A stretch of DNA of 64,000 bases from a virus (IMGVR_UViG_3300025715_000012:64001-128000); one strand, 5' to 3'. Counted from the first letter of the stretch, positions 11,555 through 61,074 are shown. Notes: a model not told the origin generated them from the sequence alone. Numbers and translations are program-made.

Positions 11555-11860
11555 ATGATTGACGTAAGAGTTGGACACAATATTTTAATCTTACCGAGAT
11601 TACAATATTATATTGAAAAGAGAGATTGGGATGATATGTCCAGTCTTATTGGAAATATTTATACCATTAATAGAATAGAAAAAGCTTCAAATTGGGAAAA
11701 AGATGGTGAGGGCGGGGATATAATATATTGGTTTCGTGATCATAATGAATTAAGTTGGTTTGTCTATAGAGATTGTTTTGAAATCACGACAAGAAAAAGA
11801 AAAAGAAAATTAAATTTAGAAGAAGATCCTTGGGGTGAAGAAAACTGGGGATGGGAATAA
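11555..11860 (+). CDS. Small SH3/KOW-like domain with C-terminal DPWGEENWGWE tag
   Basis: Paralog of 11874; core also shared with 60516 and 60784. Confidence 0.75.
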   Translation: MIDVRVGHNILILPRLQYYIEKRDWDDMSSLIGNIYTINRIEKASNWEKDGEGGDIIYWFRDHNELSWFVYRDCFEITTRKRKRKLNLEEDPWGEENWGWE

Positions 11861-12236
11861 AATTTTTTGAATTATGGATAGTTATGAAGATATAAAAGAA
11901 GGCGATGAAGTTTTAATTCTACCGAGATTGGAATATTATATTGATAAAAGAGAGTGGCCTCGTATAATGAAAGATCTCATTGGAAATATTTATGTGATCA
12001 AAGAAATAGGCTTCGATGAGAGAAATATCACAGATAGTGAAGGAGGATTTGTCATATATTGGATCAAAGATTTTGGAGAACGTTGGTATGTTTATAGAGA
12101 TTGTATAGAACATATAACTAGAAAAAGAAAATTAAATTTAGAGGAAGATCCTTGGGGTGAAGAAAACTGGGGATGGGAATAAAATTTTTTGAATTATGAA
12201 TAGTTATGAAGATATAAAAAAAGGCGATGAAGTTTT
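11798..12236 (+). repeat. 117-bp direct repeat (11798-11914 and 12120-12236, 3 mismatches)
   Basis: Tag-coding end, stop, spacer and start of the next copy; period 322 bp. Confidence 0.9.
11874..12182 (+). CDS. Small SH3/KOW-like domain with C-terminal DPWGEENWGWE tag
   Basis: Paralog of 11555. Confidence 0.75.
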   Translation: MDSYEDIKEGDEVLILPRLEYYIDKREWPRIMKDLIGNIYVIKEIGFDERNITDSEGGFVIYWIKDFGERWYVYRDCIEHITRKRKLNLEEDPWGEENWGWE

Positions 12237-12427
12237 GTTCTATGTTGTTTTGTGTCAATGTATAAAAATGGGGCATCATTTTTTATTTGTCGCAAAAGAA
12301 ATGGGTTTTTTAAATCATATTTAAAACATTTATCTTTGTAAATATCAATAAAATCTTTTTCTGATAATTCTTTTGTATATTTTTCATATTCTGTTTGTTC
12401 TTTTAAATATTCATTAAAATTTTTCAT
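12194..12427 (-). pseudogene. CTS-leader gene probably truncated by the third, partial repeat copy
   Basis: MKNFNEYLKE leader; the 3' end is read from the antisense of the duplicated segment. Confidence 0.5.
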
Positions 12428-12445
12428 AATAATATATATTTAAAA

Positions 12446-12847
12446 TCACATATCAAATTTTTGAGAATTTTTCATCTCTTTTTCTAAATCATCCTTGAAA
12501 TAAACTTTTAGATATTCTATATCAAAATTATCTAAATCATATCTTTGACGAACCAGATCATAATTTTTTTCTTTTTCGGTTGTCTTATTGGTGGATGATT
12601 TTTTTCTATCTTTCGCATCCCAATACCATTTCGGTATAGAATAAGTGTCTTTAAAAAATTCGAACCACAAGTCGATGGCTGACGCTTTATCTATCGACTT
12701 GTGATTAAAATTATTAGCAAAATCTGGAAATCCTTTTCCCAGTTTTCTATTAATAATGAAGAAAGCATCAATTTTATCTTGATCTCTAACTTCATTATAT
12801 AGATTTTTTTTAACAAAAATTCTATTTACAATTTCAATAAAATCCAT
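12446..12847 (-). CDS. Putative clamp loader small subunit (T4 gp62-like)
   Basis: FIINRKL...ANNFN...ID...PKW...DLVRQRY pattern and size resemble gp62. Confidence 0.45.
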   Translation of the reverse strand: MDFIEIVNRIFVKKNLYNEVRDQDKIDAFFIINRKLGKGFPDFANNFNHKSIDKASAIDLWFEFFKDTYSIPKWYWDAKDRKKSSTNKTTEKEKNYDLVRQRYDLDNFDIEYLKVYFKDDLEKEMKNSQKFDM

Positions 12848-12849
12848 TT

Positions 12850-13263
12850 TTAATAATAAGATTTATAATCAAAAGGATAAATTTTTACATTAAAAATAAA
12901 AACTCCTTCTTTATCATAATAGTTATATACAAAAATAACATCATTGTCTCTAAAAAGAGCTAAATCAGGTGAAGTTTTTATTTTATTTAATAGTTTTTCG
13001 GAAAATGGCACTTTTACAAGATCCCAATTACTTATGTCTGATTTTTTTCTATTGACAAGAGTGTAATTATAAGTCAATGTCTTTAAAGGGACAAAAAGAA
13101 CATTATCTGCCCTGGTCTCATTATCGACAACCATAGGTAAGTTGGTGTTTATAATAGATATGGACTCTTTCATTAGACTTGAAAAGTCATTATCGTTCAT
13201 TTTTTGTGAAAAGCCCAAAAAAGAAACAAAAATAAAGGCTAAAAGTAAAAATATTTTTTTCAT
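12850..13263 (-). CDS. Exported protein with signal peptide
   Basis: MKKIFLLLAFIFVSFLGFSQ Bacteroidota-style signal; NTNLPMVVDNETR core. Confidence 0.7.
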   Translation of the reverse strand: MKKIFLLLAFIFVSFLGFSQKMNDNDFSSLMKESISIINTNLPMVVDNETRADNVLFVPLKTLTYNYTLVNRKKSDISNWDLVKVPFSEKLLNKIKTSPDLALFRDNDVIFVYNYYDKEGVFIFNVKIYPFDYKSYY

Positions 13264-13342
13264 AGAGTTTGATTTTACAAATTATAACTTAGAAATCAAA
13301 AATTGTTTGAACTTATTTAGAATTTATTTATATAATGGTTAT

Positions 13343-16739: not shown

Positions 16740-17069
16740 ATGAAACATATAAAATTATATGAACAATTTGACTTTGAAGACTTTTCTGATGAAGAACTTT
16801 TTGGAAAAGAGACGTTTAAACTCATTTTCAGTGGTCGTAGATTTTATATAGTAGAAAAAATTGAAAATAATATAGTTTTTTTATATAAAGGTTATAAATG
16901 GATATCTGATGAAAATTTAAAAAAATATTGTTTATTTTGTTTAGAAGAATTGGGAGAAAATGATGAAATAGCAATTTTTATCGGACATAATAATACGAAT
17001 TACCAGAAATATTGGGATATTTATACAAAAGATACATTACCAAAAGAAATAAAATATGAATTGAATTGA
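16740..17069 (+). CDS. DEELFG-leader cassette protein
   Basis: MKHIKLYEQFDFEDFSDEELFG...LPKEIK. Confidence 0.8.
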   Translation: MKHIKLYEQFDFEDFSDEELFGKETFKLIFSGRRFYIVEKIENNIVFLYKGYKWISDENLKKYCLFCLEELGENDEIAIFIGHNNTNYQKYWDIYTKDTLPKEIKYELN

Positions 17070-17470
17070 AACATATAAAACTATACGAACAATTTCATTT
17101 TGAAAACATTTTAAATAGAGATGGTTTTCAATTTATATCGCATTCAACTAAAGAAGATTGGGGTGAATCTATTTTAATAATGGAAAAAGAGGGAAAAGCT
17201 TTTGGTCGAATCTATTGGTATAATGATGATGATACTACAGTTTATCTTGATTGGCTCAGTGTAGATAAAGATGCCAGAAAAGGAGGATTAGGGACAATAT
17301 TACAAAAAATAAGAGAAGATATTGGTAAAGAATTGGGCGCCAAGTTCGCCTGTTTGTGGGTAAAAAAGGATAGTTGGATGCATGATTGGTATGAAAGAAG
17401 AGGATACAAAGATTATATGAATTATAAAGAAGATAAAAATTATATATGGATGCAAAAAACAATTGAATAG
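17066..17470 (+). CDS. GNAT acetyltransferase with CTS-like leader
   Basis: LSVDKDARKGGLGT acetyl-CoA motif; WYERRGY. Confidence 0.8.
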   Translation: MKHIKLYEQFHFENILNRDGFQFISHSTKEDWGESILIMEKEGKAFGRIYWYNDDDTTVYLDWLSVDKDARKGGLGTILQKIREDIGKELGAKFACLWVKKDSWMHDWYERRGYKDYMNYKEDKNYIWMQKTIE

Positions 17471-17791
17471 ATGAAGCACATAAAAATATATGAGCAATAT
17501 GATTTTGAGGATCTATCGGATGAGGAGCTTTTTGGAAAAGTTTCCTTTAAATTGATCAAGTTAAAAAATGATATATATTTTATATTAGAAAAAATTGAAA
17601 ATGGATATCTTTTTTTATATAATGGATATGAATGGAAAAAAGAAGAATTATATGAAGAGCCCAGCGTTAATATTGAAGATTTGAGTGATGATGATATAAT
17701 AACAACTCATGAAGAAATTAATGGAAATGGATTTTGGATGCGCTGGAATAAATACACGTTGCCAGAAGAAATAAAAGATAAGTTGAAATGA
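17471..17791 (+). CDS. DEELFG-leader cassette protein
   Basis: Leader plus LPEEIK end; paralog of 16740 and 61082. Confidence 0.8.
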   Translation: MKHIKIYEQYDFEDLSDEELFGKVSFKLIKLKNDIYFILEKIENGYLFLYNGYEWKKEELYEEPSVNIEDLSDDDIITTHEEINGNGFWMRWNKYTLPEEIKDKLK

Positions 17792-18132
17792 AACATATAA
17801 AATTATATGAACAATTTGATTTTGAGGATCTATCGGATGAAGAACTTTTCGGAATAGATAGTAATAAAGGACCTTATGATGATATTTTGATATACGGCGA
17901 TAGTGGGCCTAGTTTTAAATGTGGGGATAGAGTTAAAGTAATTAATAATGATGAATTTTATTATGAAGGAAAAAAAGGTGACATTGGTACAGTGATCACA
18001 TATAGTGATGGATCTTATTTAGTTTGCTTAGATGATTTTACTGCTGGACATAAAGGAGATCGTGATACAGATTATGAGGACACGGGTGGTGGTTTGTTCC
18101 AGAAGATCTTGAAAAATATGAAAAAAAAATGA
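17788..18132 (+). CDS. DEELFG-leader cassette protein, SH3-like; probable late frameshift
   Basis: Paralog of 61429. Confidence 0.75.
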   Translation: MKHIKLYEQFDFEDLSDEELFGIDSNKGPYDDILIYGDSGPSFKCGDRVKVINNDEFYYEGKKGDIGTVITYSDGSYLVCLDDFTAGHKGDRDTDYEDTGGGLFQKILKNMKKK

Positions 18133-18443
18133 AACACATAAAAATATACGAACAATTTAATCTTGATGACTTTTCAGATGAAGAGCTTTTCGGAAATGAT
18201 GACAATTATTTTCCAAAAGAAAATATAGAGAAATATTATTATGATTATAAAGAATTATTCAATCACACAAAATATGATGAAGAATACGGATATACAAATT
18301 ATGAATTATGGACTGAAGTTGGGCAATTGACTCTCAAATATAATCTCACAAGAGACGATGTCAAATGGATACTTGATAATAAAAACACGAGATTTGATAG
18401 TGATAAATTTCTAGAAGATACATATCTTCATTGGGACGATTAA
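18129..18443 (+). CDS. DEELFG-leader cassette protein
   Basis: MKHIKIYEQFNLDDFSDEELFG. Confidence 0.8.
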   Translation: MKHIKIYEQFNLDDFSDEELFGNDDNYFPKENIEKYYYDYKELFNHTKYDEEYGYTNYELWTEVGQLTLKYNLTRDDVKWILDNKNTRFDSDKFLEDTYLHWDD

Positions 18444-20361: not shown

Positions 20362-20814
20362 ATGATAATAAAGTTTGAAAATTATTTGAATGAAAACATA
20401 TTTATAAAAAATAAATATAAGAAACTTTATGATAAACTTTATGATTATATAGAGAACGGTCGTATAAGAATGATACCGAATATTTATTCAAATTTATATA
20501 GATTCAAAATTGAAAAAAATGCTGTATCAGTCGAGGATGATCCATTTGGTGAAGAAGGGGGGAGAAAAATCACTGTTGAAGTGTCAATAAAAAAACAAGT
20601 TGACATGGATATATTAAGATTGTATGAATATATTTTAGCAATAGATGGGAATGAAGTTGATATGCCAAGTTATTATGTCAAAAAATTATATGATTTATTG
20701 GATGATAGAGAAGAAGAAAATAGAGAAGAAGAAGAAAGGAAAAAGGAAGAACTGGAAATAAAACGTCAAAAAGAACGAGAAGATAAAATTAGAAATATAG
20801 AAGAAATATTGTAA
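20362..20814 (+). CDS. CTS-leader protein with internal DDPFGEE tag
   Basis: MIIKFENYLNE; same domain as both halves of 20819. Confidence 0.75.
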   Translation: MIIKFENYLNENIFIKNKYKKLYDKLYDYIENGRIRMIPNIYSNLYRFKIEKNAVSVEDDPFGEEGGRKITVEVSIKKQVDMDILRLYEYILAIDGNEVDMPSYYVKKLYDLLDDREEENREEEERKKEELEIKRQKEREDKIRNIEEIL

Positions 20815-20818
20815 AATT

Positions 20819-21679
20819 ATGTTAATCAAATTTGAAGATTATTTAGGTGAAAGTATATTCAATAAAAAATATCAAAAATTATTTGATAATTTATATAATT
20901 ATATTAAAAAAAACATACAACTTATAGATGTTGAAACGACAAAAGATTATCCATACAACACTTATGCTTTCAACATTGTGAGATCTATTAAACCTGATTC
21001 AGATGATCCATTTGGAGAAGATTCTGAATCCAAAAAAATTAGAATAAGATTATCAAGAGGTTACGCTTCATTTACATTGGTGATCAATAAAGATATAATT
21101 GATATGCCATCCAATGATATTAGAAAATTATACAATTTGATAGATAATAGAGCTTCAATAATAAGAAAAAATATAGAAAAAGGAAAAGAAAGGGAAAAAG
21201 AGGAAAGAATTAAAAATCTTGATAGTTTTTTTGAAAAAAAAATGTCGAAAAAAGATTATTTAGACGAGTCTCTGTTCAAATCCAATAAATTATATAGCGA
21301 ATTGTATAAAAATTTATATAACTATATTCTCAAAAACTATTCTAAATTGAATGTCATAAAAGATAGAAATAATGAATACGAAATCAATCTAATAAAAACA
21401 GATCTTATGGATGAAGATGAATTCGGTGAAGATTCATCAACGACAATTTTGAAAATAAAAATCGAAAAAAATCGTGATTTTTCTTCATGGTTTAAAGATT
21501 ATTGGTATGCATTATATATCAATGGAGATAGAATAGATATGGAATATCGATATCTCATTAAATTGTATAATTTAATAGATAAAATAGAAAAGTCAAAAGA
21601 AAAAGAAGAGTTCAAACATTCTGAAAAAGAAAAAGATGAAAAGTTGACGAGTGTTATTGATATTTTAAAAAATAAATAA
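20819..21679 (+). CDS. CTS-leader protein with two tandem copies of the 20362 domain
   Basis: YLGESIF and YLDESLF unit starts; DDPFGED and EDEFGED. Confidence 0.75.
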   Translation: MLIKFEDYLGESIFNKKYQKLFDNLYNYIKKNIQLIDVETTKDYPYNTYAFNIVRSIKPDSDDPFGEDSESKKIRIRLSRGYASFTLVINKDIIDMPSNDIRKLYNLIDNRASIIRKNIEKGKEREKEERIKNLDSFFEKKMSKKDYLDESLFKSNKLYSELYKNLYNYILKNYSKLNVIKDRNNEYEINLIKTDLMDEDEFGEDSSTTILKIKIEKNRDFSSWFKDYWYALYINGDRIDMEYRYLIKLYNLIDKIEKSKEKEEFKHSEKEKDEKLTSVIDILKNK

Positions 21680-23278: not shown

Positions 23279-23608
23279 ATGAAACACTTGAAATTATATG
23301 AGCAGCTTGATTTTGAGGATCTATCGGACGAAGAACTTTTTGGTGATGAGAAAGATTTATTTCTAGGTAAAAATGGAAATACACTATATGTTTTATATGA
23401 TCCAGAATGCAAATCTGGAAGATTTAATAGATATTTGATGTATCGTGACCGATCAGATTATTATCCTTCGTATCCAAGAACTATTTTTACTCTGAATGTT
23501 TTGCCAGAAGAAAATTCTAAGATTGGATATTCATCTTATCAAGGTGGTATTCATTACACAACATGGAAAAATTTGGATCCAGAAATAAAGAAAAGAATAA
23601 AATTATGA
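23279..23608 (+). CDS. DEELFG-leader cassette protein
   Basis: Leader plus WKNLDPEIK end. Confidence 0.8.
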   Translation: MKHLKLYEQLDFEDLSDEELFGDEKDLFLGKNGNTLYVLYDPECKSGRFNRYLMYRDRSDYYPSYPRTIFTLNVLPEENSKIGYSSYQGGIHYTTWKNLDPEIKKRIKL

Positions 23609-23936
23609 AACATATAAAATTATACGAGCAATATGATTTTGAAGATCTGTCAGACGAGGAGTTATTCGGTAAACAAGAAAAAGATTTATTTTTAGGTGAA
23701 AATGGGGGGGGGGGGGGGGGGCATTGTATATTTTGTGTCCTTCTGATAATTCACTTGATGTTGTTATATATGATCATATGGATGGAGTTGGCAAAGAAAT
23801 ATACCCAAGAGCAATGTTCGAATATAAATTTATTGTTAAAGAAAATTCTAGAATAGCGTATTTAGAGAATCGCAGGTTTCATTATACAACATGGAAAAAA
23901 CTGGATCCAGAAATAAAAGAAAGAATAAAAATATGA
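23605..23936 (+). pseudogene. DEELFG-leader cassette frameshifted at a G18 tract
   Basis: Both halves align to 23279; G run at 23704-23721. Confidence 0.8.
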
Positions 23937-24253
23937 AACACGTAAAACTATACGAACAATTTGATTTTGAGGATCTTTCGGACGATGAACTTTTTGGTAA
24001 ACAAGAGAAAGATTTAACGATTGCAATATGTTCTGGTGATTATTATATTGTATATGCTTTTACAAATGAGATTCATATTTTTAATGAATACTTAACAAAT
24101 GATGATGAACCTGGATATCCTATGAGAATATTTCATTTCGCTGAATATGTCCCAAGAGACACCCAAACCATATGTTATAGAAAAGGGGGTAATACAGCTA
24201 GATGTCTATGGAAAGATTTGTCAGAAGAAATAAAAGAAAGAATACAAATATGA
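23933..24253 (+). CDS. DEELFG-leader cassette protein
   Basis: MKHVKLYEQFDFEDLSDDELFG...WKDLSEEIK. Confidence 0.8.
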   Translation: MKHVKLYEQFDFEDLSDDELFGKQEKDLTIAICSGDYYIVYAFTNEIHIFNEYLTNDDEPGYPMRIFHFAEYVPRDTQTICYRKGGNTARCLWKDLSEEIKERIQI

Positions 24254-24558
24254 AACATTTGAAAATATATGAACAATTTGACGAGAATGATCCTTGGGGT
24301 GAAGAGATCGTTCGTAATAATGACGAAATAAGACCAGAAATATATTTTACAATTGATTGTGATGGCGATATTGAATACGTGACTCCAATGGAATATGAAG
24401 ACTTTGTGGAAAATTTAGTAAATGGTGGAACTATACCTGTCGCTGAAAGAACCGAAGGAACTATATATCCAGATGGAAGAATTGTTTATCGGATTTGTAC
24501 AGAAGTCAGTGAAGATTGGAATGATGATGTTTGGGAAGACAACGAAGTATTTATTTAA
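24250..24558 (+). CDS. Cassette protein with hybrid leader (CTS plus DPWGEE)
   Basis: MKHLKIYEQFDENDPWGEE. Confidence 0.75.
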   Translation: MKHLKIYEQFDENDPWGEEIVRNNDEIRPEIYFTIDCDGDIEYVTPMEYEDFVENLVNGGTIPVAERTEGTIYPDGRIVYRICTEVSEDWNDDVWEDNEVFI

Positions 24559-24574: not shown

Positions 24575-24625
24575 ATGAAGAAACTGAAACTATATGAACA
24601 ATTTCGATCAGTATTTAGATGTTAA
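24575..24625 (+). pseudogene. Empty leader stub
   Basis: MKKLKLYEQFRSVFRC-stop. Confidence 0.6.
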
Positions 24626-26675: not shown

Positions 26676-27203
26676 TTGAAACATTTAAAAATATACGAAC
26701 AATTTGACTTTGATGATTTTTCAGATGAAGAACTTTTTGGATTCAAAGACGACAATATAAAGATTGGTGATAAAGTTTATTTAATAAATGATGAAAACGC
26801 TCTCTATTATGAATATGGAGGTGAATTTGTTTCTTCGGCTAATAGAATTAATTTTTCTGAAGAAGTAAAAGATATACAATTTATAAATGGCGAGAAATGT
26901 TTAAAAATAACCGGACTATGGTATAAATCAAGTTGTTTTTCTCTTACATCATTATTGGCGAAAATATCAAAAAAAGAACAATATGATTTTGAAGATCTAT
27001 CTGATGAAGAACTTTTTGGTAAGGAACCATTTGATTATACTGAATTGAAAGTTGGAGATTTGTTAGAATTAAAGAATGGTGAAATTGTAGAAGTTTATGC
27101 GGTGCCAAACAAAACAAGTTCATTATTATACATATTTGGTAGAAGAAGTGGGATTAGAAAAATTGACACAGAAGAAATAAAAAAAGTTATCAAAAAGAAA
27201 TAA
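26676..27203 (+). CDS. Fusion of two DEELFG cassettes (two SH3/KOW-like domains)
   Basis: Leader at the start and EQYDFEDLSDEELFG again at 26976. Confidence 0.8.
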   Translation: MKHLKIYEQFDFDDFSDEELFGFKDDNIKIGDKVYLINDENALYYEYGGEFVSSANRINFSEEVKDIQFINGEKCLKITGLWYKSSCFSLTSLLAKISKKEQYDFEDLSDEELFGKEPFDYTELKVGDLLELKNGEIVEVYAVPNKTSSLLYIFGRRSGIRKIDTEEIKKVIKKK

Positions 27204-42113: not shown

Positions 42114-42404
42114 TTAATTTTCACTAATTTCCTCCCAACCCCAGTTTTCCTCGCCCCAAGGATCATCTTTTAAATTTAGTATTCTTTTACTGTTCGATGG
42201 ATAAATTAAATGAAAATATACATCATAACAACAATTATCTTTACCGTGTAAATATTTGTTAAAACTTGTGGGGAATTTAATTCTAGCCCACCCAGCCGAA
42301 GAATGGATTAATATAATTTCTCCAATTTCACCTTTAAAATCAATGTTGTCCATTTTTCCATAAACAGAAACTTTATCTCCAATATGTAATTCTTCTATTT
42401 TCAT
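42114..42404 (-). CDS. SH3-like domain with C-terminal DPWGEENWGWE tag
   Basis: Core shared with the 45873 N-terminus and 55548 domain 2. Confidence 0.75.
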   Translation of the reverse strand: MKIEELHIGDKVSVYGKMDNIDFKGEIGEIILIHSSAGWARIKFPTSFNKYLHGKDNCCYDVYFHLIYPSNSKRILNLKDDPWGEENWGWEEISEN

Positions 42405-42485
42405 ATAACATATATATTAAAAATTTCACCAATTTTCCTCTCCCCACGGGTCATCTTCTAAATTTAATTTTCTTTTATATGGATT

Positions 42486-47123: not shown

Positions 47124-47511
47124 AAAGGTATAAAAATTATGAAATATTTAAAGATATACGAACAATTTGATTTCGAAGATCTTTCAGACGAAGAGATCTT
47201 TGGTAGAGAGCCAAAAAATTTCGAAATAGGCGATGTTGTTCATTTTACAAGAACGAGTTCAGTGAGATGGAATACGGAAAAATTACAAAAGAATAAACCG
47301 TTGTGGTTAGATAGTACATTTTTTTCTAAAGAAAAATGGTTTGTTGTAACAGCAATAGGTCGTGTTGAAGATATGGATTTTATCAAGATTGTAGCATATA
47401 ATAAAAAAACAATTGGGAATCATCCGTATCAATTTTTCTGGTATGATGCTGACGCTTTTGAAAAGGTATAAAAATTATGAAATATTTAAAGATATACGAA
47501 CAATTTGATTT
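47123..47511 (+). repeat. 51-bp exact direct repeat (47123-47173 and 47461-47511) flanking one cassette
   Basis: AAAAGGTATAAAAATTATGAAATATTTAAAGATATACGAACAATTTGATTT occurs twice. Confidence 0.92.
47139..47471 (+). CDS. DEELFG-leader cassette protein, SH3-like
   Basis: MKYLKIYEQFDFEDLSDEEIFG. Confidence 0.8.
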   Translation: MKYLKIYEQFDFEDLSDEEIFGREPKNFEIGDVVHFTRTSSVRWNTEKLQKNKPLWLDSTFFSKEKWFVVTAIGRVEDMDFIKIVAYNKKTIGNHPYQFFWYDADAFEKV

Positions 47512-48337: not shown

Positions 48338-48970
48338 ATGAGACATTTAAAAGTATACGATGAATATTTAAAAGAGGAAAAAAGTTGGTTCAATTTTTTA
48401 AAAAAACCAACGAAATATAAACCAATTCCAATTGACGAAAATGATCCTTGGGGTGAAGATACTCATAGAGAATATACTTTTGGTGATTGGTTTAAAAACA
48501 ATCGATCAAAAATAAAAAATTCTAGATTTCCTTTTTTAATAAAAACAATTGACTGCTCTCAAAGTATGATAACCAGTCTCAAAGGAATCGAGAAATTAAT
48601 AAATCTTAGTTCTTTGACCTGCGCAGGAAATCTATTAAGTGATTTAAAGGGAATAGAAAATTTAAAACATCTGGAAATTCTATGGGTCTATGACAACAAA
48701 CTGAAAAGTATAAAAGAAGTGAAAAATTTAAAAAATTTAAAAGAATTTTCTTGTTCTGGCAATCTATTAACAAGTTTAGAGGGAATAGAGAATTTGATAA
48801 ATCTTGAAAGATTATATTGCTATCTAAATCCAATAACTTGCGTCATTGGTATAGAAAAATTGAAGAATCTTCAGCAACTATATGCGTTTGGTGGCACTAT
48901 GTTTTCAGAAACATATAAAGAATATTTGAAAAAATATTGTAGGAAAAAAAATATAGGATATATAATATGA
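48338..48970 (+). CDS. Leucine-rich repeat protein with CTS leader and DPWGED tag
   Basis: LxxLxCxxNxLxxLxGIExL repeats. Confidence 0.85.
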   Translation: MRHLKVYDEYLKEEKSWFNFLKKPTKYKPIPIDENDPWGEDTHREYTFGDWFKNNRSKIKNSRFPFLIKTIDCSQSMITSLKGIEKLINLSSLTCAGNLLSDLKGIENLKHLEILWVYDNKLKSIKEVKNLKNLKEFSCSGNLLTSLEGIENLINLERLYCYLNPITCVIGIEKLKNLQQLYAFGGTMFSETYKEYLKKYCRKKNIGYII

Positions 48971-50898: not shown

Positions 50899-51710
50899 TA
50901 GAATATAAGATGTCAGCGGAAAACAGAAAGATATACTCGGATAATATAAATCGAGTTTTATTTCCTATGTATAGAAAAATGGGCAAATTGAAAAGATTGA
51001 GCCCCCATAGTATGTTTGGAGTAGTTGACACTGGATATGATTTACCAAGTGGAACAAGATCTTATGATTTTTATAATGGAAAAGATCCATATTGGTCTTT
51101 TTTGAATTATGTTAATACCAACATGCGTTCTTTCGCTGTTATTATGAAGCATTATAATGAAATGAATGATGAAAAAATATATAACGTGGACACCGCAGAT
51201 AAAGTCACAAAAGTAAATAATTTTATAAATGAATATGCCGAAGAAATATTCAAACCGAGCGATGGTGTGTTTCGAGATTGTTTGTGGGATATACTTGGAA
51301 AAATATCAACGACTAGATTTTATGGAGATTATGCCGAAGAAATAGCCGCTAGATTGTTGACAGAGAAATATAATATGGAAAATGTGGATAAAAGTGTTCC
51401 TGGCGATAAAAGAGATGCTTTCTATGGAGTTGATATAACATTTGACTTTAAAGGTAAAAATCAAACAGCTCAATGTAAGATTTATAACAATACTGGTTTA
51501 AAATTAGAAAATGGCGGTTATCTATTTAGTGGTCCAGCAATTACAAATTATAAAAACATAGATTATTTTATTTTTGTGAATATGAATATGAGACATTTCT
51601 ACATATTTCGCACAATTAGTAAAGCCACAGGCGATAGAATAGAAATAAATGAAAATGGATACTTTTTTAAAGAATCCCTAAAAGTAGATGATGGAAGATA
51701 TGAATATTGA
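50895..51710 (+). CDS. Hypothetical protein, PD-(D/E)xK-like
   Basis: GDYAE...DAFYGVD...TAQCK. Confidence 0.6.
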   Translation: MIEYKMSAENRKIYSDNINRVLFPMYRKMGKLKRLSPHSMFGVVDTGYDLPSGTRSYDFYNGKDPYWSFLNYVNTNMRSFAVIMKHYNEMNDEKIYNVDTADKVTKVNNFINEYAEEIFKPSDGVFRDCLWDILGKISTTRFYGDYAEEIAARLLTEKYNMENVDKSVPGDKRDAFYGVDITFDFKGKNQTAQCKIYNNTGLKLENGGYLFSGPAITNYKNIDYFIFVNMNMRHFYIFRTISKATGDRIEINENGYFFKESLKVDDGRYEY

Positions 51711-52704
51711 AACATACATATTACAACATGCTTTTGAATTAAAGTTTCATGAGTCTAGGGATGATTATTTTGAATTTTTTCGAAATAAACTCGAAAACTC
51801 TTATATAAGATGTAAGCTCATTTCAGGTGCACGAGAAATAGAAGAGCACGGTAAAATAAAAAAAGTTACAATCAATCCAATAGATACAAGATCCATTGCG
51901 ATTTATATAATTATGGATAATGGTGATGAGGGATATATACATGTTTATGAACCAATTGTAATATCAAAGAAACCGTTCGAAAAAATTATAAAATTTGATT
52001 CAGAAGATGATCCATTTGGTGAAGATGCAGAATGGCATTGGGGTGAAATAAAAGAATCGAACCATACAATAGAAAATTTTACTATTGGCGATATAGTAAG
52101 ACTGGATAGGAATACAAAAGAATATAAAGAACTTTATCCACATCGCAGATATTTTTATGAGGTAGGAGAAGACGAATTTGGAGTTGTGGAAAGGGTTCTA
52201 TATAACGAAAATTTTATTATAGTTAAATGGGGAAGTGGATATTCAAATGCCTATAGATCAAATGAACTTATTATTGATATAAAAAAAGAAAAAAGAAAAC
52301 AAAATTTAGAAGATGATCCTTGGAATGAAGAAGATTGGGGATATGAAGAAATAAAAGAAAAAAATCATATGAAAAATTTTAGAATGTTTATAAACGAAAA
52401 TTATACTTTAACCATCGCTGATGGAGAAAGTGATTCTGAAGCCGTGTGGCTCGAAGAATGTGATGTGTCTGATATCTGGTCTGATTATAAAAGTGAAAAG
52501 ATAAATGAAAACAATTTCATCAACACTTATAATAGAAGACTCGTTGGGAAGAAAGATAAGCTCGTAAAAATTGGAGTTAAATGTTGGAATGAATTAGCTA
52601 AATTGATAAGAGAAGGAAATGATGATATGATGAAATATTTAGATGACATTTATGATTGGGCCGATAAATACGGAGTTAAAATAATATCAAAGAAAAATGA
52701 TTGA
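51688..52704 (+). CDS. Three-module tagged polyprotein
   Basis: DDPFGED..WGEIKE and DDPWNEEDWGYEEIKE linkers; internal leader MKNFRMFINE at 52369. Confidence 0.75.
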   Translation: MMEDMNIETYILQHAFELKFHESRDDYFEFFRNKLENSYIRCKLISGAREIEEHGKIKKVTINPIDTRSIAIYIIMDNGDEGYIHVYEPIVISKKPFEKIIKFDSEDDPFGEDAEWHWGEIKESNHTIENFTIGDIVRLDRNTKEYKELYPHRRYFYEVGEDEFGVVERVLYNENFIIVKWGSGYSNAYRSNELIIDIKKEKRKQNLEDDPWNEEDWGYEEIKEKNHMKNFRMFINENYTLTIADGESDSEAVWLEECDVSDIWSDYKSEKINENNFINTYNRRLVGKKDKLVKIGVKCWNELAKLIREGNDDMMKYLDDIYDWADKYGVKIISKKND

Positions 52705-53383
52705 TGTCAAAAAACTTTTTGTGAAATATCATGGTTATGTTGAATGTCTACATATAGCTAAGATTTTGGCTAATATGGGATTTAAAGTTTATGGATACAA
52801 TTTCACATTTAAGAGTCATTTGATTGATTTATATATGGATTATAAGGGATTATATTTTAAATATGATGAAAAGTTTGAAACGCCATATTTTACTCTGATA
52901 GATGATGATTCAATTGAAGGATATAAAACTATTGAATATGAAGATTTTATAAAAATTATTAAAAAAGATTTTCCAGAATTCATGGCAAAAAAATTAAAAA
53001 GAAAAATAACTGAAGATGATCCTTGGGGCGAAGATTCTACATTTGAAAAATTTAATATATACAATCATATGATAACAAAATTTCAAATATTCGAGAAAAG
53101 ATTTCATCCGGCCGTGGGTGAATATTATCAAATAAATTACTGGGTTACAGGAGAAGTTGCGCCTGTTAAAATTTTAAAAGTCAATCCGAATAATACTTAT
53201 TTGGTTGGATTTGATGTTGAAGGAAGCTCGGTCCGAGGAGCTCCGAATGTCGTTATAAAAAATTCTGATATTGTTGCTCCATATAAACCAATAAGAAGTC
53301 CGGTTGGATCAGGGTTTATATCAACGAACACGAATATGAGTATACGTCAGGTGCATCAAGTTTCAAATGATATGTACTTGTAA
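52697..53383 (+). CDS. Two-module fusion with internal promoter and start (53069)
   Basis: DDPWGEDS, then TAATATATA, then MITKFQIFE and a Tudor/SH3-like domain. Confidence 0.7.
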   Translation: MIDVKKLFVKYHGYVECLHIAKILANMGFKVYGYNFTFKSHLIDLYMDYKGLYFKYDEKFETPYFTLIDDDSIEGYKTIEYEDFIKIIKKDFPEFMAKKLKRKITEDDPWGEDSTFEKFNIYNHMITKFQIFEKRFHPAVGEYYQINYWVTGEVAPVKILKVNPNNTYLVGFDVEGSSVRGAPNVVIKNSDIVAPYKPIRSPVGSGFISTNTNMSIRQVHQVSNDMYL

Positions 53384-53392: not shown

Positions 53393-53869
53393 TTAACTAT
53401 CTTCTCCCCAAGGATCATCCAATTTTTGCTCTTCTGGTAAATCTTCTATCGCAAAATATATATCATTGAATATTTTCTTTAAAGTGGACTCTCTTCTTCT
53501 TTTACAATATTCATATGGCTGTAATCCAATTTTTGGTCCAGTATCGTTGAAACTATCTATAATATGATCTCCGCGTAAAACAATGGCATCATAAAGCATA
53601 AATTGGTATTCTTTTTCAGAAACATATTTAAAAATATAAATATCATAATTCTTATGATGACAAAGGGCATATGTTGAATAATCGGTAGATTTGCCATAAG
53701 CGGCTTTAAACTCTATATTTGGAAAATCTCTTATTATTTCAAATCCAGCAGCATTTAGAATCTCGGTTTCAAAATCATTGAAATATGGTCGTTCTTGATT
53801 ATTTTGAATTCTCCTTTTACGAATTTCATCATCTGATGGCATGAATTTGAACTGTTCGAAACTCTTCAT
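53393..53869 (-). CDS. CTS-leader protein with C-terminal DDPWGEDS tag
   Basis: MKSFEQF...LDDPWGEDS. Confidence 0.7.
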   Translation of the reverse strand: MKSFEQFKFMPSDDEIRKRRIQNNQERPYFNDFETEILNAAGFEIIRDFPNIEFKAAYGKSTDYSTYALCHHKNYDIYIFKYVSEKEYQFMLYDAIVLRGDHIIDSFNDTGPKIGLQPYEYCKRRRESTLKKIFNDIYFAIEDLPEEQKLDDPWGEDS

Positions 53870-55120: not shown

Positions 55121-55537
55121 AAAATCATAAAAAGTTTTTTAATATATAGAACAAAATTTAAATAATTTTAAATGAATATTCTCAAATTCAATACTTTTAA
55201 TTCTGTAAATGAGCAAGATGATAATGGTTTTTATGTCGGGCAAAAAGTTTCTTTAAAAGAAGAATTGATAGGTGGTTACTCAGCATATTTTACTAGAAGA
55301 GTTATAAAAGATAATGATGGGACCATTGTTCGTATTAACTTTAATATGGAATATCCATTAATTATCGACTGGGGAGATGATTCTGTTGCCAATTATCGTG
55401 TGAGTGAAATAATACCAAAGGGAATGAAAATAAAAAGAAAACAAAATCTAAAAGACGATCCTTGGGATGAAGAAAATTGGGGGCATGAATTTGTGAAAGA
55501 AAATCATAAAAAGTTTTTTAATATATAGAACAAAATT
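55121..55537 (+). repeat. 38-bp exact direct repeat containing the late promoter (55121-55158 and 55500-55537)
   Basis: AAAATCATAAAAAGTTTTTTAATATATAGAACAAAATT occurs twice. Confidence 0.9.
55172..55528 (+). CDS. CTS leader, SH3-like domain and DPW tag
   Basis: MNILKFNTFNSVNE...DDPWDEENWG. Confidence 0.75.
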   Translation: MNILKFNTFNSVNEQDDNGFYVGQKVSLKEELIGGYSAYFTRRVIKDNDGTIVRINFNMEYPLIIDWGDDSVANYRVSEIIPKGMKIKRKQNLKDDPWDEENWGHEFVKENHKKFFNI

Positions 55538-55547: not shown

Positions 55548-56546
55548 ATGGTTAATTCTTTTTATGTCGGGCAAAAAGTTTCTTTAAAAGAAGAATTGAT
55601 AGGTGGTCGCTCAGTGTTTTTTAGTAGAAGCGCTATAAAAGACAACGATGGAACTATTGTTGATATTAATTTCAATAATGAATATCCATTAACTATCGAC
55701 TGGAAAAACTCCAAGGATGTTGATTACACAAAATGTTATCGTTATGGGGTAGATGAAGTTGTACCAAAGGGGATGAAAAGAAAACTGAATTCGGATGATC
55801 CCTGGGGAGAAGAGAATTGGGGATGGGAAGAAGTGAAAGAAAATAATAACTATAAAGGTTTCAATATTGGAGATGAAGTTTTTGTACATGGGCACATGTC
55901 CAACATTCACTTTACTGGTCAAAAAGGAACTGTAATAAAGATTTTTGATTATTCAGATAGAATTTTAGTTAAATTTCCAGAACGATTTGATGACAATTTA
56001 CACGATGGAAATGGAGATGATGAAACAAATAGTTCATATTATATTGATTATGAACTTTTAACATTAGCCGACAATAAAAAAAGAAGAAGAAAACAAAATC
56101 TAAAAGACGATCCTTGGGATGAGGAGTATTGGGGATGGGAATTTAAAAGAAAAACCAATCCAGATGATGATCCTTGGAATGAAGAAGACTGGGGATGGGA
56201 GGAAGTAAGTGAATCTAATAAATTTGATAATTTAATTGATTATTATATACCTTTTAAAACGAAAGAAGAAATGATCACAATAGCTAAAAAATTGGATGAG
56301 TTGGAATATATTGTTGCAAATTATAGAGAAGTTATTGTTGGAGTAGGATTTGATAATCCAGGACACAAGGTTTATTGTTACCATAAAGGAAAATTTATGA
56401 GGGCGACAATAGATTTTGCTAATTATAATAATAAAAAAAAATTGAGCCTTGAAGATCTCATTGGGTTCAAAAAAGGAAAAAGAATAACTAATCCAGATGT
56501 TGATCCTTGGAATGAAGAAGACTGGGGATGGGAAGAGATAAAATAA
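55548..56546 (+). CDS. Three-domain polyprotein with four DPW tags
   Basis: DPWGEENWGWEEVKE, DPWDEEYWGWE, DPWNEEDWGWEEVSE, DPWNEEDWGWEEIK. Confidence 0.8.
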   Translation: MVNSFYVGQKVSLKEELIGGRSVFFSRSAIKDNDGTIVDINFNNEYPLTIDWKNSKDVDYTKCYRYGVDEVVPKGMKRKLNSDDPWGEENWGWEEVKENNNYKGFNIGDEVFVHGHMSNIHFTGQKGTVIKIFDYSDRILVKFPERFDDNLHDGNGDDETNSSYYIDYELLTLADNKKRRRKQNLKDDPWDEEYWGWEFKRKTNPDDDPWNEEDWGWEEVSESNKFDNLIDYYIPFKTKEEMITIAKKLDELEYIVANYREVIVGVGFDNPGHKVYCYHKGKFMRATIDFANYNNKKKLSLEDLIGFKKGKRITNPDVDPWNEEDWGWEEIK

Positions 56547-58823: not shown

Positions 58824-59231
58824 TTATTCTTCTTCTCCCCAAGGATCATCCTCTGGACTCAAATTGCTTTTTTTTCTTTCTGTTTTATGATAAATGGTGT
58901 TATCAAAATTATTATCAATATATCTCCTTAAAATAACCTCGTAATATTTCGTGTTTGAAAACATCCTATCTTTCATTTCTTCGTAATATTTCTCAGTGGA
59001 TAATTGAGCAAAGGATGTTGCAACACCGTCTTCATAACGAATTTCGAATAAACCATAAGGTTCTTTAGTAACTTCATCGAAGCCTCCACCATCTTCTTTT
59101 AAAGTTCTATTATAACTATATCCACATTTACTACAAAAAATATATTCTTCATCGCTTTTGTAGTAATATTCATCAAAGCACTCGCTTTCACATCTCGGAC
59201 AAGAATAATCATATGATATAACGCTTCCCAT
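58824..59231 (-). CDS. Zinc-ribbon protein with C-terminal DDPWGEEE tag
   Basis: CPRC...CSKCG. Confidence 0.7.
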   Translation of the reverse strand: MGSVISYDYSCPRCESECFDEYYYKSDEEYIFCSKCGYSYNRTLKEDGGGFDEVTKEPYGLFEIRYEDGVATSFAQLSTEKYYEEMKDRMFSNTKYYEVILRRYIDNNFDNTIYHKTERKKSNLSPEDDPWGEEE

Positions 59232-59238: not shown

Positions 59239-59505
59239 TTAATAATTAACTTTCATTAAAGATGTTTCATATAATAAATCATGTTTTATAACATAATCTA
59301 ATATGTTATCTACCTGCTTTTCAGTTAGATGTTTATTGGCTGCCACTGCCATAGCATAGGGAATTTCTCCGTCCTCACCCATATAGACAGAAATGATTTT
59401 TTTATCATATATTTTTAAGTTCTCTAAAATTTCATCCATATCGAGATCTTTAACGTAATCTCTATACGCGAAACCATAAAAAATTATATCATCGAACATA
59501 ATCAT
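59239..59505 (-). CDS. Hypothetical protein
   Basis: TAAATTTG promoter upstream. Confidence 0.55.
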   Translation of the reverse strand: MIMFDDIIFYGFAYRDYVKDLDMDEILENLKIYDKKIISVYMGEDGEIPYAMAVAANKHLTEKQVDNILDYVIKHDLLYETSLMKVNY

Positions 59506-59569
59506 AAGTGCAAATTTAATAAAAATATTTTAATATATACAAATAATAAATAAAAAAAAATGATATCAA

Positions 59570-59668
59570 ATGAAAAAATTTAATGAATTTCTATTAGAGA
59601 ATTTAAAATGGAAAATGAGAGATAGAGGCAGATATTTAGAAACCGAAGCACCCGATTTTAAATGGTGA
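59570..59668 (+). CDS. Short CTS-leader ORF (32 aa), possibly a frameshifted remnant
   Basis: MKKFNEFLLE; late motif at 59531. Confidence 0.5.
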   Translation: MKKFNEFLLENLKWKMRDRGRYLETEAPDFKW

Positions 59669-59746
59669 GAAATTTCTGGATCATTGTGTGGAATTGGGCG
59701 CTGACGTAGATAGTAAAGATTACAATTAAAAAAAAATATTAAAAAA

Positions 59747-60523
59747 ATGGATTCACAGACATTCAAAAAGTTTTTTGAAAACTCTAGCACATATCATTCT
59801 TTTACAGATATTTTAAATTTGGCAAAAGAAACATCAGATTATATCTACAACAACGATATAATAAAAAGTAAGTTGTTCAACTCCTTTAAAGAAACCGATA
59901 AAGGATTTCAACTCATTTTTGATAGAGTAGATAAAGATGATATATTTATAGACGCTAGCAAAAAGACAATTAAAGATAAAGAAGGAATAGATATAAATTT
60001 AGATAAAGCCTATAGTGACATCGAAGATTTATATAGAGATATCAAATTGGAATTTTATGTAAATATAAAACAGATGAACGAAGGATTAAAAACCTTTGAA
60101 AAGTTCGCTGGAAATAAAATAAAAACTTTCTCTGAAATGTCTTTGATAAATGAAAAATTTACAGAAGAGTTTGATATGAAACTATCAGATGATTATAAAT
60201 CTTTAAAGAAAGGAATTTTAGAATTAATTGATCAAACATTAAAAGGTGATGTTACAAAAATACAAAAATTTATCAATGATTATATTGAAGAAGACTCGGA
60301 AGAGGTCTTGGATGGTTTCATCGAAGACGCGGACATATTCGATACCTATTTGAAATACCAATCGGATATAGACGAATTGCTTGATGAAGAATTAAATTAT
60401 TTTAATGATGCTCCAACAGAAATTGGATTATATAATTATGTTGTTCGCGGAACATTTGAAGCAGTTGTCTATTGTATGAAATTAATAAAAGAAGAATTAT
60501 TTGGAAAAGAAGAAAATGAATAG
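59747..60523 (+). CDS. Acidic protein with leader-like repeats, ending in EELFG
   Basis: TFKKFFE, LKTFEKF, IKTFSEMSLINE. Confidence 0.7.
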   Translation: MDSQTFKKFFENSSTYHSFTDILNLAKETSDYIYNNDIIKSKLFNSFKETDKGFQLIFDRVDKDDIFIDASKKTIKDKEGIDINLDKAYSDIEDLYRDIKLEFYVNIKQMNEGLKTFEKFAGNKIKTFSEMSLINEKFTEEFDMKLSDDYKSLKKGILELIDQTLKGDVTKIQKFINDYIEEDSEEVLDGFIEDADIFDTYLKYQSDIDELLDEELNYFNDAPTEIGLYNYVVRGTFEAVVYCMKLIKEELFGKEENE

Positions 60524-60776
60524 AATTAAACTATACGAACAATTTGATTTTGAGGATCTCTCGGATGAAGAGCTCTTTGGTAAAAAAACTGCACCAGAAG
60601 TTGGAGACAGGATTTTAATTTTAGATACATTAAGATATTACGTTATTCGACATGAATGGGATAAAAATATGTTAGAGATCATAGGAAAAGAGACCTATAT
60701 CACTGAAATTTATCATAATAAATATTATATAAGAGAAGGTTGGTACGTTTATAGAGATTGTTTTGAAATAATTTAG
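60516..60776 (+). CDS. DEELFG-leader cassette protein (11555-type core)
   Basis: WYVYRDCFE. Confidence 0.8.
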   Translation: MNRIKLYEQFDFEDLSDEELFGKKTAPEVGDRILILDTLRYYVIRHEWDKNMLEIIGKETYITEIYHNKYYIREGWYVYRDCFEII

Positions 60777-60783
60777 AAAAAAT

Positions 60784-61074
60784 ATGAAACATTTGAAACT
60801 ATACGAACAATTTGATTTCGAAGACCTATCTGACGAGGAGCTTTTTGGTAAAAAAACTGAACCAGATATTGGAGATAAAATTTTAATTTTACCGAATTTA
60901 AAAGATTATATTTATGAATACAATTGGTCTGAAAAGATGTTGGATTTTATAGGAAAAGAATTTTCTATTACTAAAATAGTATTAAAAAATGATTATATAA
61001 GTCTTTATAATCAAAATAGATATTATATAAGAGATGGGTGGTTTATTTTTAGAGATTGTTTTGAATTAATTTAG
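60784..61074 (+). CDS. DEELFG-leader cassette protein (11555-type core)
   Basis: WFIFRDCFE. Confidence 0.8.
   Translation: MKHLKLYEQFDFEDLSDEELFGKKTEPDIGDKILILPNLKDYIYEYNWSEKMLDFIGKEFSITKIVLKNDYISLYNQNRYYIRDGWFIFRDCFELI

Follow-up and report, generated by a model that had tools for sequence, protein, structure and literature searches.

What do two short acidic peptide labels do on the small proteins of a huge phage, and do both of them carry the same signal? The question is raised by a 64,000-nucleotide stretch of viral DNA (the window), which is part of a 147-kb contig from an uncultured T4-like huge phage. The nearest sequenced relative of the contig is a sister phage, LR756501 (735 kb), and all members of the clade are known from metagenomic sequence alone. 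Two such labels mark, one or the other, dozens of small, unrelated, fast-evolving modules. The first is a 22-residue leader, MKHxKLYEQFDFEDLSDEELFG (the DEELFG leader). The second is the motif DP[W/Y/F]xEExW (the DP tag), which is placed N-terminally, C-terminally or as a repeated linker and which in its long form consists of a basic patch followed by DP[W/Y/F]xEExW(G[WY]). The window holds 15 copies of the leader (0 expected) and 20 DPWxE[ED] sites (0.01 expected), and a chance origin is excluded for both. About 1 in 8 to 11 proteins bears a tag, roughly a tenth of the proteome. Taken together, labels and modules look like an undescribed address-and-cutting system.

The original prediction held that the same domains occur under either label and that the domain bodies move between contexts. 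When both labels were masked, the core A domains with a C-terminal DPW tail (11555 and 11874, which end in KRKLNLEEDPWGEENWGWE) aligned in BLASTP with those opened by the 22-residue DEELFG leader (60516 and 60784) at 34-39% identity over 70-73 residues (E 2e-8 to 9e-8), with 18 invariant columns that include the ILILP and YRDC blocks. For core B, again with the labels masked, 42114 matched 45873 (43% identity, E 1e-10); 42114 also matched residues 105-186 of 55548 (37% identity, E 2.5e-8), and 45873 matched 55548 (45% identity, E 1e-17). As predicted, core B has a C-terminal tag in 42114, lies between tags in 55548 and, in 45873, belongs to a protein that starts with MVKSFLSYIKEA; the leader gene 61429 encodes a weak relative of it. 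Core A was found in four settings: after the DEELFG leader, before a C-terminal DPW tail, flanked by DPY linkers (P0015, P0063 and P0077, multi-module proteins from metagenomes) and at the protein start (P0030 and P0034, of the same kind). The spread of contexts of core B matches that of core A, and movement of modules between contexts is strongly supported. The change of label falls, in each family, on a single old split (35-38% identity) and does not reflect repeated recent swaps.

The two labels were also said to share one slot, and this holds for gene 24250 (MKHLKIYEQFDENDPWGEE). It carries DPWGEE at residues 14-19 and its sister genes carry DEELFG at residues 17-22, so that the slot is the same within three residues. 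The arrangement of head plus DPW recurs in 3528, 38940 and 48338 and in four genes that lie beyond the window; paralogues of 48338 either have the head plus DPW or are unlabelled. Both labels are portable, and at least six unrelated body families stand behind the leader. DPW is the repeated internal linker of three chains, those of 55548 (three modules), of 51688 and of a 601-aa contig protein (five modules), and P0027 has at least 12 modules. The linkers of 55548 end in EEVKE followed by N and in EEVSE followed by S. The labelled genes of the window are listed in Table 1.

Table 1. Labelled genes and related features in the window.
Position	Strand	Feature	Remark
3528..4010	+	MIKRFKIFEQ head, then DPWGEE at residue 18	
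11555..11860	+	Core A (SH3-like barrel), long C-terminal DPW tail (KRKRKLNLEEDPWGEENWGWE)	
11874..12182	+	Core A, long C-terminal DPW tail, tandem paralogue of 11555	
16740..18443	+	Four DEELFG-leader genes (16740, 17471, 17788, 18129)	Directly 3' of 807-aa neck-like gene
20362..21679	+	Two paralogues with internal DPFGE[ED]	
23279..24253	+	Three DEELFG-leader genes (23279, 23605, 23933)	
24250..24558	+	MKH head, DPWGEE in DEELFG slot	Last gene of 23279-24558 array
26676..27203	+	Two leader-plus-body modules, TTG-start ORF	Second DEELFG is internal linker
32740..33006	-	Short N-terminal DPWGEE, residue 10	
33634..33819	-	Short N-terminal DPWGEE, residue 10	
36941..37357	-	Short N-terminal DPWGEE, residue 11	
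38940..39194	+	MKH head, then DPWGED	
42114..42404	-	Core B (SH3-like), long C-terminal DPW tail ending EEISEN	
42436..42476	-	Relic tag KLNLEDDPWGEENW, then stop, body missing	
45873..47123	+	T4-CTS-like head (MVKSFLSYIKEA), core B, 320-residue body with acidic tail	DPW tag absent
47139..47471	+	DEEIFG-leader gene	Leader stub after it at 47477
48338..48970	+	Leucine-rich-repeat protein, MRHLKVYDEYLKE head, DPWGED at residue 36	
51688..52704	+	Three-module chain, DPFGED and DPWNEE linkers	Second linker ends EEIKE followed by K
52697..53383	+	N-module, DPWGED linker, C-domain	
53393..53869	-	MKSFEQFKF head and C-terminal DPWGEDS	
55172..55528	+	Stand-alone paralogue (66%) of 55548 module 1, long DPW tail	
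55548..56546	+	Three-module chain, four DPW tags, second module core B	
58824..59231	-	Zinc-ribbon-like protein ending DPWGEEE	
60516..60776	+	Core A after N-terminal DEELFG leader	
60784..61074	+	Core A after DEELFG leader	AF2 core pLDDT > 90
61082..62096	+	Three leader genes (61082, 61429, 61758)	
62123..62986	+	287-aa protein, MKHLKLFEYF head, without acidic label	

Selection on the labels acts at the peptide level, since their amino acids are near-invariant and their synonymous sites vary freely. All ten amino-acid-invariant columns of the leader use two to four synonymous codons each, and none of the 36 tags in the contig departs from D-P-aromatic-x-E, while their Gly and Pro codons are mixed. 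Rare codons are enriched in the leader (GAG 49% versus 18% in the bulk, TCG 57% versus 8%) and in the tag (CCT 76% versus 24%), and the common rare codons show that the label copies share ancestry. Both labels look flexible in the structure predictions: the tags of 55548 have a pLDDT below 50, and in the AF2 model of 60784 leader residues 1-22 are of low pLDDT and adjoin a confident core. The choice of aromatic residue is genome-specific. It is W in 32, F in 3 and Y in 1 of the contig tags, and Y in all 109 tags of LR756501 (DPYGE[ED], with W in none); four relatives that are more distant gave no tag. Profile searching yielded 97 further metagenomic proteins with 278 tag copies in regular chains of modules (median spacing 116 residues, maximum 12 per protein), and a single aromatic residue is used in 87 of the 96 that bear the motif. 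Among homologues F and W occupy the aligned tag position; the homologues of the 20362..21679 pair in a relative, L011, have DPW there, and an MKHLKLYEE head. One-aromatic use per genome could also stem from the recent spread of a single tag copy.

The tagged bodies turn over fast: a structural protein is 60% identical in LR756501, yet four of six tagged proteins queried had no match there. The C-domain of 52697 shares 65% identity with the final part of a 380-aa LR756501 protein that has no tag. The labelled modules comprise SH3-like barrels, leucine-rich repeats and small alpha/beta domains and are mostly orphans; the tagged chains tested against Pfam (E <= 0.001) gave no family except one zinc-ribbon-like match, and comparison with PHROGs gave matches of unknown function only. 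Bacteroidetes are the predicted hosts of the largest Mahaphage genomes (PMC7162821). A promoter-like box is identical upstream of tagged and untagged genes and therefore gives no evidence on timing.

In T4, capsid targeting depends on residues 4 and 7 and processing on residues 8 and 10, and gp21 cleaves after L/I-X-E (PMC9026906). With the T4 heads taken from the T4 record, a head of the form [FYW]xx[FYWH][ILVM]xE was found on 12 of the 199 proteins of the contig (0.8 expected), 45873 among them, and on 20 of the 97 tag proteins; its Glu is followed by S or N in 20 of 32 heads. A looser head, K-x-[FY]xx[FY], is present on 42 of the 199 (6 expected). Ordinary enzymes bear heads too: a PPK2 kinase and a DeoC-like protein (assigned by sequence reading) have one, and their packaging would not be expected. 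A site of the same kind follows the tags: [ILV]xE lies within 12 residues after 161 of 212 internal tags (76%), against 38 +/- 5 in control windows, an enrichment measured beside an E-rich motif, and S or N comes next in 112 of the 161. The occurrence of [ILV]xE[S/N] after linker tags agrees with the T4 prohead-protease rule. No capsid, portal or protease genes were found in the contig, itself a fragment. LR756501 has a T4-type head module, with a portal (E 8e-71), a gp23-like capsid protein (E 6e-24) and between them a protease-like domain that scores 25.7 bits as Peptidase_S80 (cut-off 23.4) and 23.5 bits as S77, below the cut-off of 27.

Our best guess, held at a confidence a little short of even, is that the labelled proteins are loaded into the capsid and that the cargo is then separated by proteolysis. 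Some common factor would read the flexible labels as peptides, in three putative layers. The first would be an N-terminal head of general type, M-x-K-x-[FY]-x-x-[FY]-[IL]-x-E-[S/N/A], which mirrors T4 MKTYQEFIAE, with aromatics at i and i+3 and including the L/I-x-E site. The second would be the clade-wide tail and linker, that is, the basic patch and DP motif of the long form, with [ILV]xE[S/N] after internal copies. The third, the lineage-specific DEELFG leader, may be a head derivative that has lost the I-x-E site, its acidic-aromatic-Gly element filling the position that DPWGEE has in other genes. The leader keeps Y-x-x-F, has D/N-F/L-E in place of T4 I-A-E and falls outside the T4-type head pattern; in its internal copies L-x-E is not kept, and K or R stands at P3 of the upstream Y-E. 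The labels would address modules to the assembling prohead, a Glu-specific prohead protease would cut the chains at [ILV]xE[S/N], and each freed module would retain its DP tail and be delivered together with the DNA. With one tagged protein in eight to eleven the cargo list would be large, a point against capsid loading.

The T4 internal proteins IPI, IPII, IPIII and Alt are small and differ greatly, yet all open with the same short N-terminal head, and here as well an unchanging head was found on bodies that are diverse and evolve fast. The capsid-targeting sequence of T4 is removed by the gp21 prohead protease, whereas the present system is known from sequences alone. T4 has no second label; here the DP-aromatic-xEExW motif is far more abundant, mainly as C-terminal tail and repeated linker, the labels are borne by about one protein in ten, and the DEELFG leader is 22 residues long without the I-x-E site. 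Mature T4 internal proteins are basic, and the strongly acidic tails described here are unlike them. The T4 internal proteins are described as diverse defence proteins with the targeting sequence as their only common feature (PMC3012670). For the phage subset of the polyvalent proteins of phages and conjugative elements, head packaging and proteolytic release have been predicted (Iyer et al. 2017, PMC5512222). Polyvalent proteins too hold several unrelated modules per polypeptide, and the chains here fall within their 2 to 15 domains; polyvalent proteins are defined by known conflict enzymes, often with peptidase domains of their own, whereas the modules here are orphans of about 90 residues outside Pfam, joined by one conserved repeated linker that doubles as a terminal tag on single-module proteins. 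In phiKZ, 201phi2-1 and SPN3US, gp175-type (S80) proteases cut inner-body/ejection proteins after S/A-X-E, and giant phages pack many paralogous head proteins that are cut after Glu at a minimal motif (PMC9026906). The protease-like domain of LR756501 scores above the Peptidase_S80 cut-off; no common tail or linker motif is described for the three phages in the literature compared, and the present clade is T4-like. Encapsulin cargo-loading peptides are likewise short, flexible, usually C-terminal and lineage-variable, and direct unrelated cargo into an HK97-fold shell. They differ in their unrelated sequence, in serving the shells of bacterial nanocompartments and not phage heads, and in lacking repeated linkers and chains.

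Small orphan genes number in the hundreds in huge phages, and a means of approach to them has been lacking. A label on so large a share of the proteome groups such orphans into one jointly testable class, and its reader, once found, would account for many proteins together. If the labels are signals for capsid loading and cutting, these phages would deliver with their DNA a large set of small proteins that is reshuffled quickly, and the T4 internal-protein idea would be enlarged and recast in the form of modular chains. The choice among W, Y and F, which differs by genome, provides a natural co-variation experiment toward the reader, and short portable tags could become tools to load proteins into phage particles.

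The two acidic labels had also been proposed to be functionally equivalent, which is plausible; that DEELFG and DPWGEE are fully interchangeable forms of one signal with one partner is possible but, in our estimate, somewhat unlikely. Both stand in the same slot after the same MKHxKLYEQF head, have an acidic-[L/P]-aromatic-Gly core in common, occur on the same body families and act as repeated linkers (DEELFG in 26676-27203 and three times in L029), and two arrays close with a DPW-headed gene directly after the DEELFG genes. No ORF carries both labels, an absence that is not significant because only about two co-occurrences are expected by chance. Against full interchangeability, the DEELFG element is a module tail in no case, whereas DPW is mostly a tail, and it lacks the basic patch, the WGW/second Trp and the [IV]xE[S/N] site of the long DPW form. 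It is absent from LR756501, though the 109 DPY tags are present there, and its exact DNA pattern matches only 7 IMG/VR contigs; the leader is limited to a narrow lineage. The 15 leader copies of the window form arrays that all share a strand, whereas genes with DPW are found on either strand. The presence of both labels in one genome would fit two readers no less than one, and also two addresses or two timings.

It is unlikely that the labels are uncut docking motifs for a hub other than the capsid (a chaperone, compartment, condensate or host complex), with the chains as multivalent clients. Placement of the motif at either terminus or internally, its predicted flexibility and an aromatic residue that varies by genome, as co-evolution with one reader would give, all suit such a hub. 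The two tag-bearing phages each have a phage GroEL, which four tag-less relatives lack, and GroES-like and DnaJ genes lie within the window; the GroEL pattern, however, comes from only two sister genomes and is thus confounded by descent, and we know of no linear acidic chaperonin tag. Docking leaves unexplained the conserved [ILV]xE[S/N] that follows internal tags and ends N-terminal heads, and the contig yielded no candidate for the hub. The DPW/DPF adaptor-binding motifs of eukaryotes, which bear a resemblance, are bare DP[FW] repeats in disordered regions of endocytic proteins that bind the AP-2 appendage, whereas the unit here is longer (DPxxEExW plus basic patch) and the predicted host is bacterial.

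The labels could also be two orthogonal zip codes, DEELFG and DP-aromatic-xEExW, with separate readers and cargo sets that differ in place or time, the W/Y/F dialect and its reader co-evolving, which would keep related huge phages in a co-infection from loading each other's cargo. We hold this to be distinctly improbable; if true, it would amount to a private, programmable protein-sorting system over about a tenth of the proteome. Very unlikely, too, is that the motifs are passive domain-boundary linkers, copied with the modules by duplication and read by nothing. The common rare codons do show tag descent from common DNA, many tagged genes are tandem paralogues, and duplication and decay are seen to continue from the relic tags and leader stubs; but near-invariant amino acids beside scrambled synonymous sites and bodies diverged beyond recognition do not fit, nor do motifs at free termini of unrelated folds, where a linker is not needed, or an aromatic residue that is uniform within a genome and different between genomes. 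That the conserved stretches act mainly as DNA microhomology for recombining modules into arrays and chains is highly improbable, for although modules are plainly shuffled, a leader stub lies at 47477 and 17-nt runs such as GATCCTTGGGGTGAAGA recur, conservation tracks reading frame and amino acids, long identical DNA tracts are the exception since synonymous positions vary freely, and the shuffling may be a by-product of repeats.

The DEELFG leader was also compared with double-glycine leaders of peptidase-ABC export, and this assignment was rejected. It ends F-G followed by K, E, I, N or T, not GG, GA or GS, and its bodies are folded domains of 60-90 residues, whereas the cargo of double-glycine leaders is a short peptide. 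Within the leader arrays, that of 16740 begins 2 nt past the neck-like gene, an untagged ORF (17180-17470) sits between 16740 and 17471, and a run of 18 G throws 23605 out of frame.

Core A (the module in 11555, 11874, 60516 and 60784; genes are named by their window start) and core B (that in 42114, 45873 and the middle of 55548) were compared by BLASTP with their labels masked. The labels are the DEELFG leader, N-terminal with an MKH head, and the DP tag, DP[W/Y/F]xEExW, in a tail or linker. With the labels replaced by X, 11555 and 11874 aligned to 60516 and 60784 at 34-39% identity (E about 1e-8) with 18 invariant columns; the leader is carried by one pair only and the DPW tail by the other pair only. 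The three copies of core B were 37-45% identical (E 2.5e-8 to 1e-17). HMM searches placed core A behind the leader, ahead of the DPW tail, flanked by DPY linkers in three metagenomic chains, and as the opening module of two further chains. Core B followed T4-like heads, preceded W, Y or F tails and lay within six chains; its connection to the leader-bearing 61429 family is weak (E 1e-3). The C-terminal domain of 52697, which follows a DPWGED linker, shares 65% identity with the end of a 380-aa protein that carries no tag and belongs to LR756501, a 735-kb sister huge phage. Since these bodies are seen in many contexts, module exchange is real and widespread; that bodies move between contexts had been proposed in the original prediction. 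Gene 24250 was also as described there, with a standard MKH head and then DPWGEE where DFEDLSDEELFG is usual. Every sequence observation made there was confirmed. The claim that the tags are interchangeable stood in part: the same bodies do occur under either label, but in this genome the families each divide by label type once, in an old split, with no repeated recent swapping. That the DEELFG and DP labels are functionally equivalent is, on this evidence, rather doubtful.

The AlphaFold model of core A had a pLDDT above 90, with the leader at low confidence. Fold searches with core A gave nothing better than weak SH3-like matches (best E 0.014, TM about 0.5), and in an Atlas structure search core B came out near SH3_12 models (TM about 0.42); SH3-like is used as a descriptive term only. 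The whole-chain AF2 model of 55548 was poor (mean pLDDT 44), its usable part being the beta-rich core B. The tags in it scored below 50, a weak indication that they may be disordered. No family of known function was matched by the tagged bodies in Pfam or PHROGs.

The leader consensus is MKHxKLYEQFDFEDLSDEELFG, with 10 positions amino-acid-invariant over 16 copies. The contig contains 36 copies of the DP motif, with D-P-aromatic-x-E invariant. Its short form is placed after an N-terminal head; the long form, KRKxNLxDDPWxEExWGWEE[IV]xE, ends small proteins or connects modules in chains, and free-standing tagged proteins stop 1-8 residues from the conserved W. In the window, 20 DPWxE[ED] sites (0.01 expected) and 15 leaders (0 expected) were counted. 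DEELFG also serves as an internal linker: a TTG-initiated ORF holds two leader-plus-body modules in a single frame, two contig proteins outside the window have an internal leader, and a 269-aa protein of an IMG/VR relative has KEQFxxDDFSDEELFG ahead of each of its three modules. Both labels thus mark module boundaries, DEELFG before the module and DP after it. No ORF carries both, where an overlap of only about 2 would be expected. The role of the leader as a further boundary label, doubling as a linker, is new, as is the exchange of the same bodies between labels. The ending W-K-[DN]-L-[PD]-x-E-I-K-x-R-I is conserved at the C-terminus of several leader-bearing families, and the stop codon of these leader genes overlaps the ATG of the next gene, giving wrong-frame N-terminal extensions in plain ORF lists. 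Relatives also have a second linker or tail motif, which is basic: (K)IRWY[KS]KG[KR]L. In LR756501 (L017:725-1555) and in the metagenomic proteins P0046 and P0092 it connects or terminates SH3-like modules, and it seems to be used in place of the DP tag.

In T4, IPIII and IPII start with MKTYQEFIAE and IPI with MKTFKEF. The first ten residues are enough for T4 packaging, with a role in targeting for residues 4 and 7 and in processing for residues 8 and 10, and gp21 cleaves after L/I-X-E (PMC9026906). A K-x-[FY]-x-x-[FY] start was found in 42 of 199 contig proteins (about 6 expected), and the full head, [FYW]xx[FYWH][ILVM]xE, in 12 contig proteins (0.8 expected) and 20 of 97 tag proteins, as in 45873 (MVKSFLSYIKEA) and the metagenomic P0104 (MKTYKDFLNEA). 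S or N is the commonest residue after the head E. Within 12 residues after an internal tag, [ILV]xE was present in 161 of 212 cases against 38 +/- 5 in controls, with S or N next in 70% of those. As the same rule ends the heads and follows the internal tags, the order of a chain is head, IKE|S, module, tail, EEIKE|S, module, repeating. This [IL]xE[S/N] ending common to heads and linkers is new. The MKH leader aligns with the T4-like heads but has D-F-E instead of I-x-E; it is a derived head that lacks the canonical site.

Word-index protein searches returned little beyond the proteins of this phage itself and a few close relatives and carried little information on distribution; a profile search was informative. 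The 33-column profile of the long tag, run against 1.84 billion representative proteins (E <= 0.001), matched 98, many with 3 to 10 matched stretches. With 42114, itself a match, left out, the other 97 contained 278 motifs at a median spacing of 116 residues, and the W at position +8 was retained in 269. Of the 96 motif-bearing proteins, 87 had the same position-3 aromatic throughout: 42 had Y, 26 had F and 19 had W. DPWGEE, KLYEQF and DEELFG are all absent from LR756501, where the motif becomes visible only once Y is allowed: there are 109 DPYGE[ED] sites against 0 for the reversed control pattern, and none in two other 630-640-kb phages, nor in PTm1 or PAU. In three sampled stretches of LR756501, 29 of 49 motifs closed a small protein as roughly its last ten residues, the tail consensus being [RK][IV][FY][ST][ED][LA]DPYGEExW. 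F and W stand at the aligned position in homologous proteins of the contig and its relative L011. A search of LR756501 for tagged orthologues in which W had been replaced in place by Y left four queries unmatched, and one matched an untagged context only; in-place change of the aromatic was demonstrable only for F versus W, in closer homologues. By exact DNA pattern, the leader was found in seven IMG/VR contigs, and it also occurs in two metagenome relatives. A full-text literature search with the motif strings returned nothing relevant. The W and F dialects, uniform per genome, are new, and no description of the motifs was found in the searchable literature, Pfam or PHROGs.

The window (bases 64001-128000) lies within a single 147,412-bp IMG/VR virus contig with a G+C of about 28%. 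The contigs concerned come from JGI and ENA metagenomes of digester and wastewater type. One 807-aa ORF has 60% identity to a protein of LR756501 ('uncultured phage') and weaker kinship to other 630-640-kb records, Sphingomonas phage PAU gp88 and a 'neck protein' of Tenacibaculum phage PTm1. In PMC7162821 the biggest genome reported is 735 kb, and the largest genomes there belong to the Mahaphage clade, with predicted replication in Bacteroidetes. Encoded in the window are GroEL, DnaJ, PPK2, a PurF-like amidotransferase, a GMP-reductase/IMPDH-like enzyme, a vWA protein, an exonuclease and an intein-bearing flavoprotein, the last an FMN-reductase/flavodoxin-like gene split by an intein with a LAGLIDADG domain. 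Three neighbouring paralogues (383, 509 and 692 aa) have in common a C-terminal domain of ~260 residues (34-43% identity) that matched nothing in Pfam or PHROGs. Portal, capsid and protease genes were not found in the 147-kb contig. Both a portal of T4 type (E 8e-71) and a capsid protein resembling gp23 (E 6e-24) are encoded by LR756501; the N-terminus of an ORF between them matches prohead proteases, with Peptidase_S80 above the cut-off and S77 just below.

Window positions of the features described
Feature	Position	Strand
Three paralogues	4750-9597	-
DnaJ	9638-10642	+
807-aa ORF	14314-16737	
W-K-[DN]-L family	16740-17069	
W-K-[DN]-L family	17471-17791	
W-K-[DN]-L family	23279-23608	
Poly-G run	23704-23721	
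W-K-[DN]-L family	23933-24253	
Leader stub, early stop	24575-24625	+
Two-module leader ORF	26676-27203	
GroEL	27249-28865	-
GroES-like protein	29765-30055	-
Promoter-like box	38915-38930	
Promoter-like box	42410-42420	-
Tag without body	42436-42476	-
Leader stub, early stop	47477-47602	+
Intein-split flavoprotein	48967-50898	+
Promoter-like box	55140-55150	
Promoter-like box	55518-55528	
W-K-[DN]-L family	61082-61432	
W-K-[DN]-L family	61758-62096	

The most economical reading of these sequences would be a reading of the labels in trans, since four points coincide: their peptide stays constant as the DNA drifts, they can sit at either terminus and on unrelated folds, they are predicted to be flexible, and each genome keeps to one dialect that differs from that of other genomes. 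Three features (T4-like heads, Glu sites, and head genes of T4 type in the sister phage) favour capsid loading with proteolytic separation of cargo, which the labels may quite possibly serve; the head genes missing from the contig, the heads on ordinary enzymes and the very acidic tails count against it. A non-capsid hub that reads the labels is unlikely. Its one lead, a weak one, is GroEL, present in this genome and LR756501 and absent from LR756502, LR745206, PTm1 and PAU; its presence parallels the DP tag, in few genomes and confounded by descent. It is highly improbable that the labels, read in trans on the preferred reading, are passive linkers. A role in DNA-level recombination has very little probability: all 10 invariant leader positions use 2-4 synonymous codons each, so the conserved entity is the peptide; the leaders have in common codons rare in this genome and therefore also descend from one piece of DNA. 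A nucleotide-level signal (rare codons, SD-like GAGGAG) was rejected as the main constraint, since synonymous sites vary and the tag Glu/Asp codons match bulk. Double-glycine bacteriocin leaders, type 1, 7 and 9 secretion signals, SSB or clamp-binding tails, 2A-like skipping peptides and acid-labile Asp-Pro bonds were dismissed because defining residues were absent or the position was unfit.

A decayed tag and leader stubs suggest frequent duplication and loss within the arrays. An 18-nt poly-G run inside leader gene 23605, the sole G/C homopolymer of at least 8 nt in the contig, frameshifts this gene as assembled, and addition of one G or removal of two gives a full 109-110-aa member of the 23279/23933 family; the run would reflect slipped-strand switching or else an error of assembly. 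Many starts have a promoter-like box 6-29 nt 5′ of them, made up of a T-run and then AATATATA, and the box occurs contig-wide. Of 220 upstream regions, 36 contained it, where its 90 genome-wide copies would predict about 5, and it stands before tagged and untagged genes alike.
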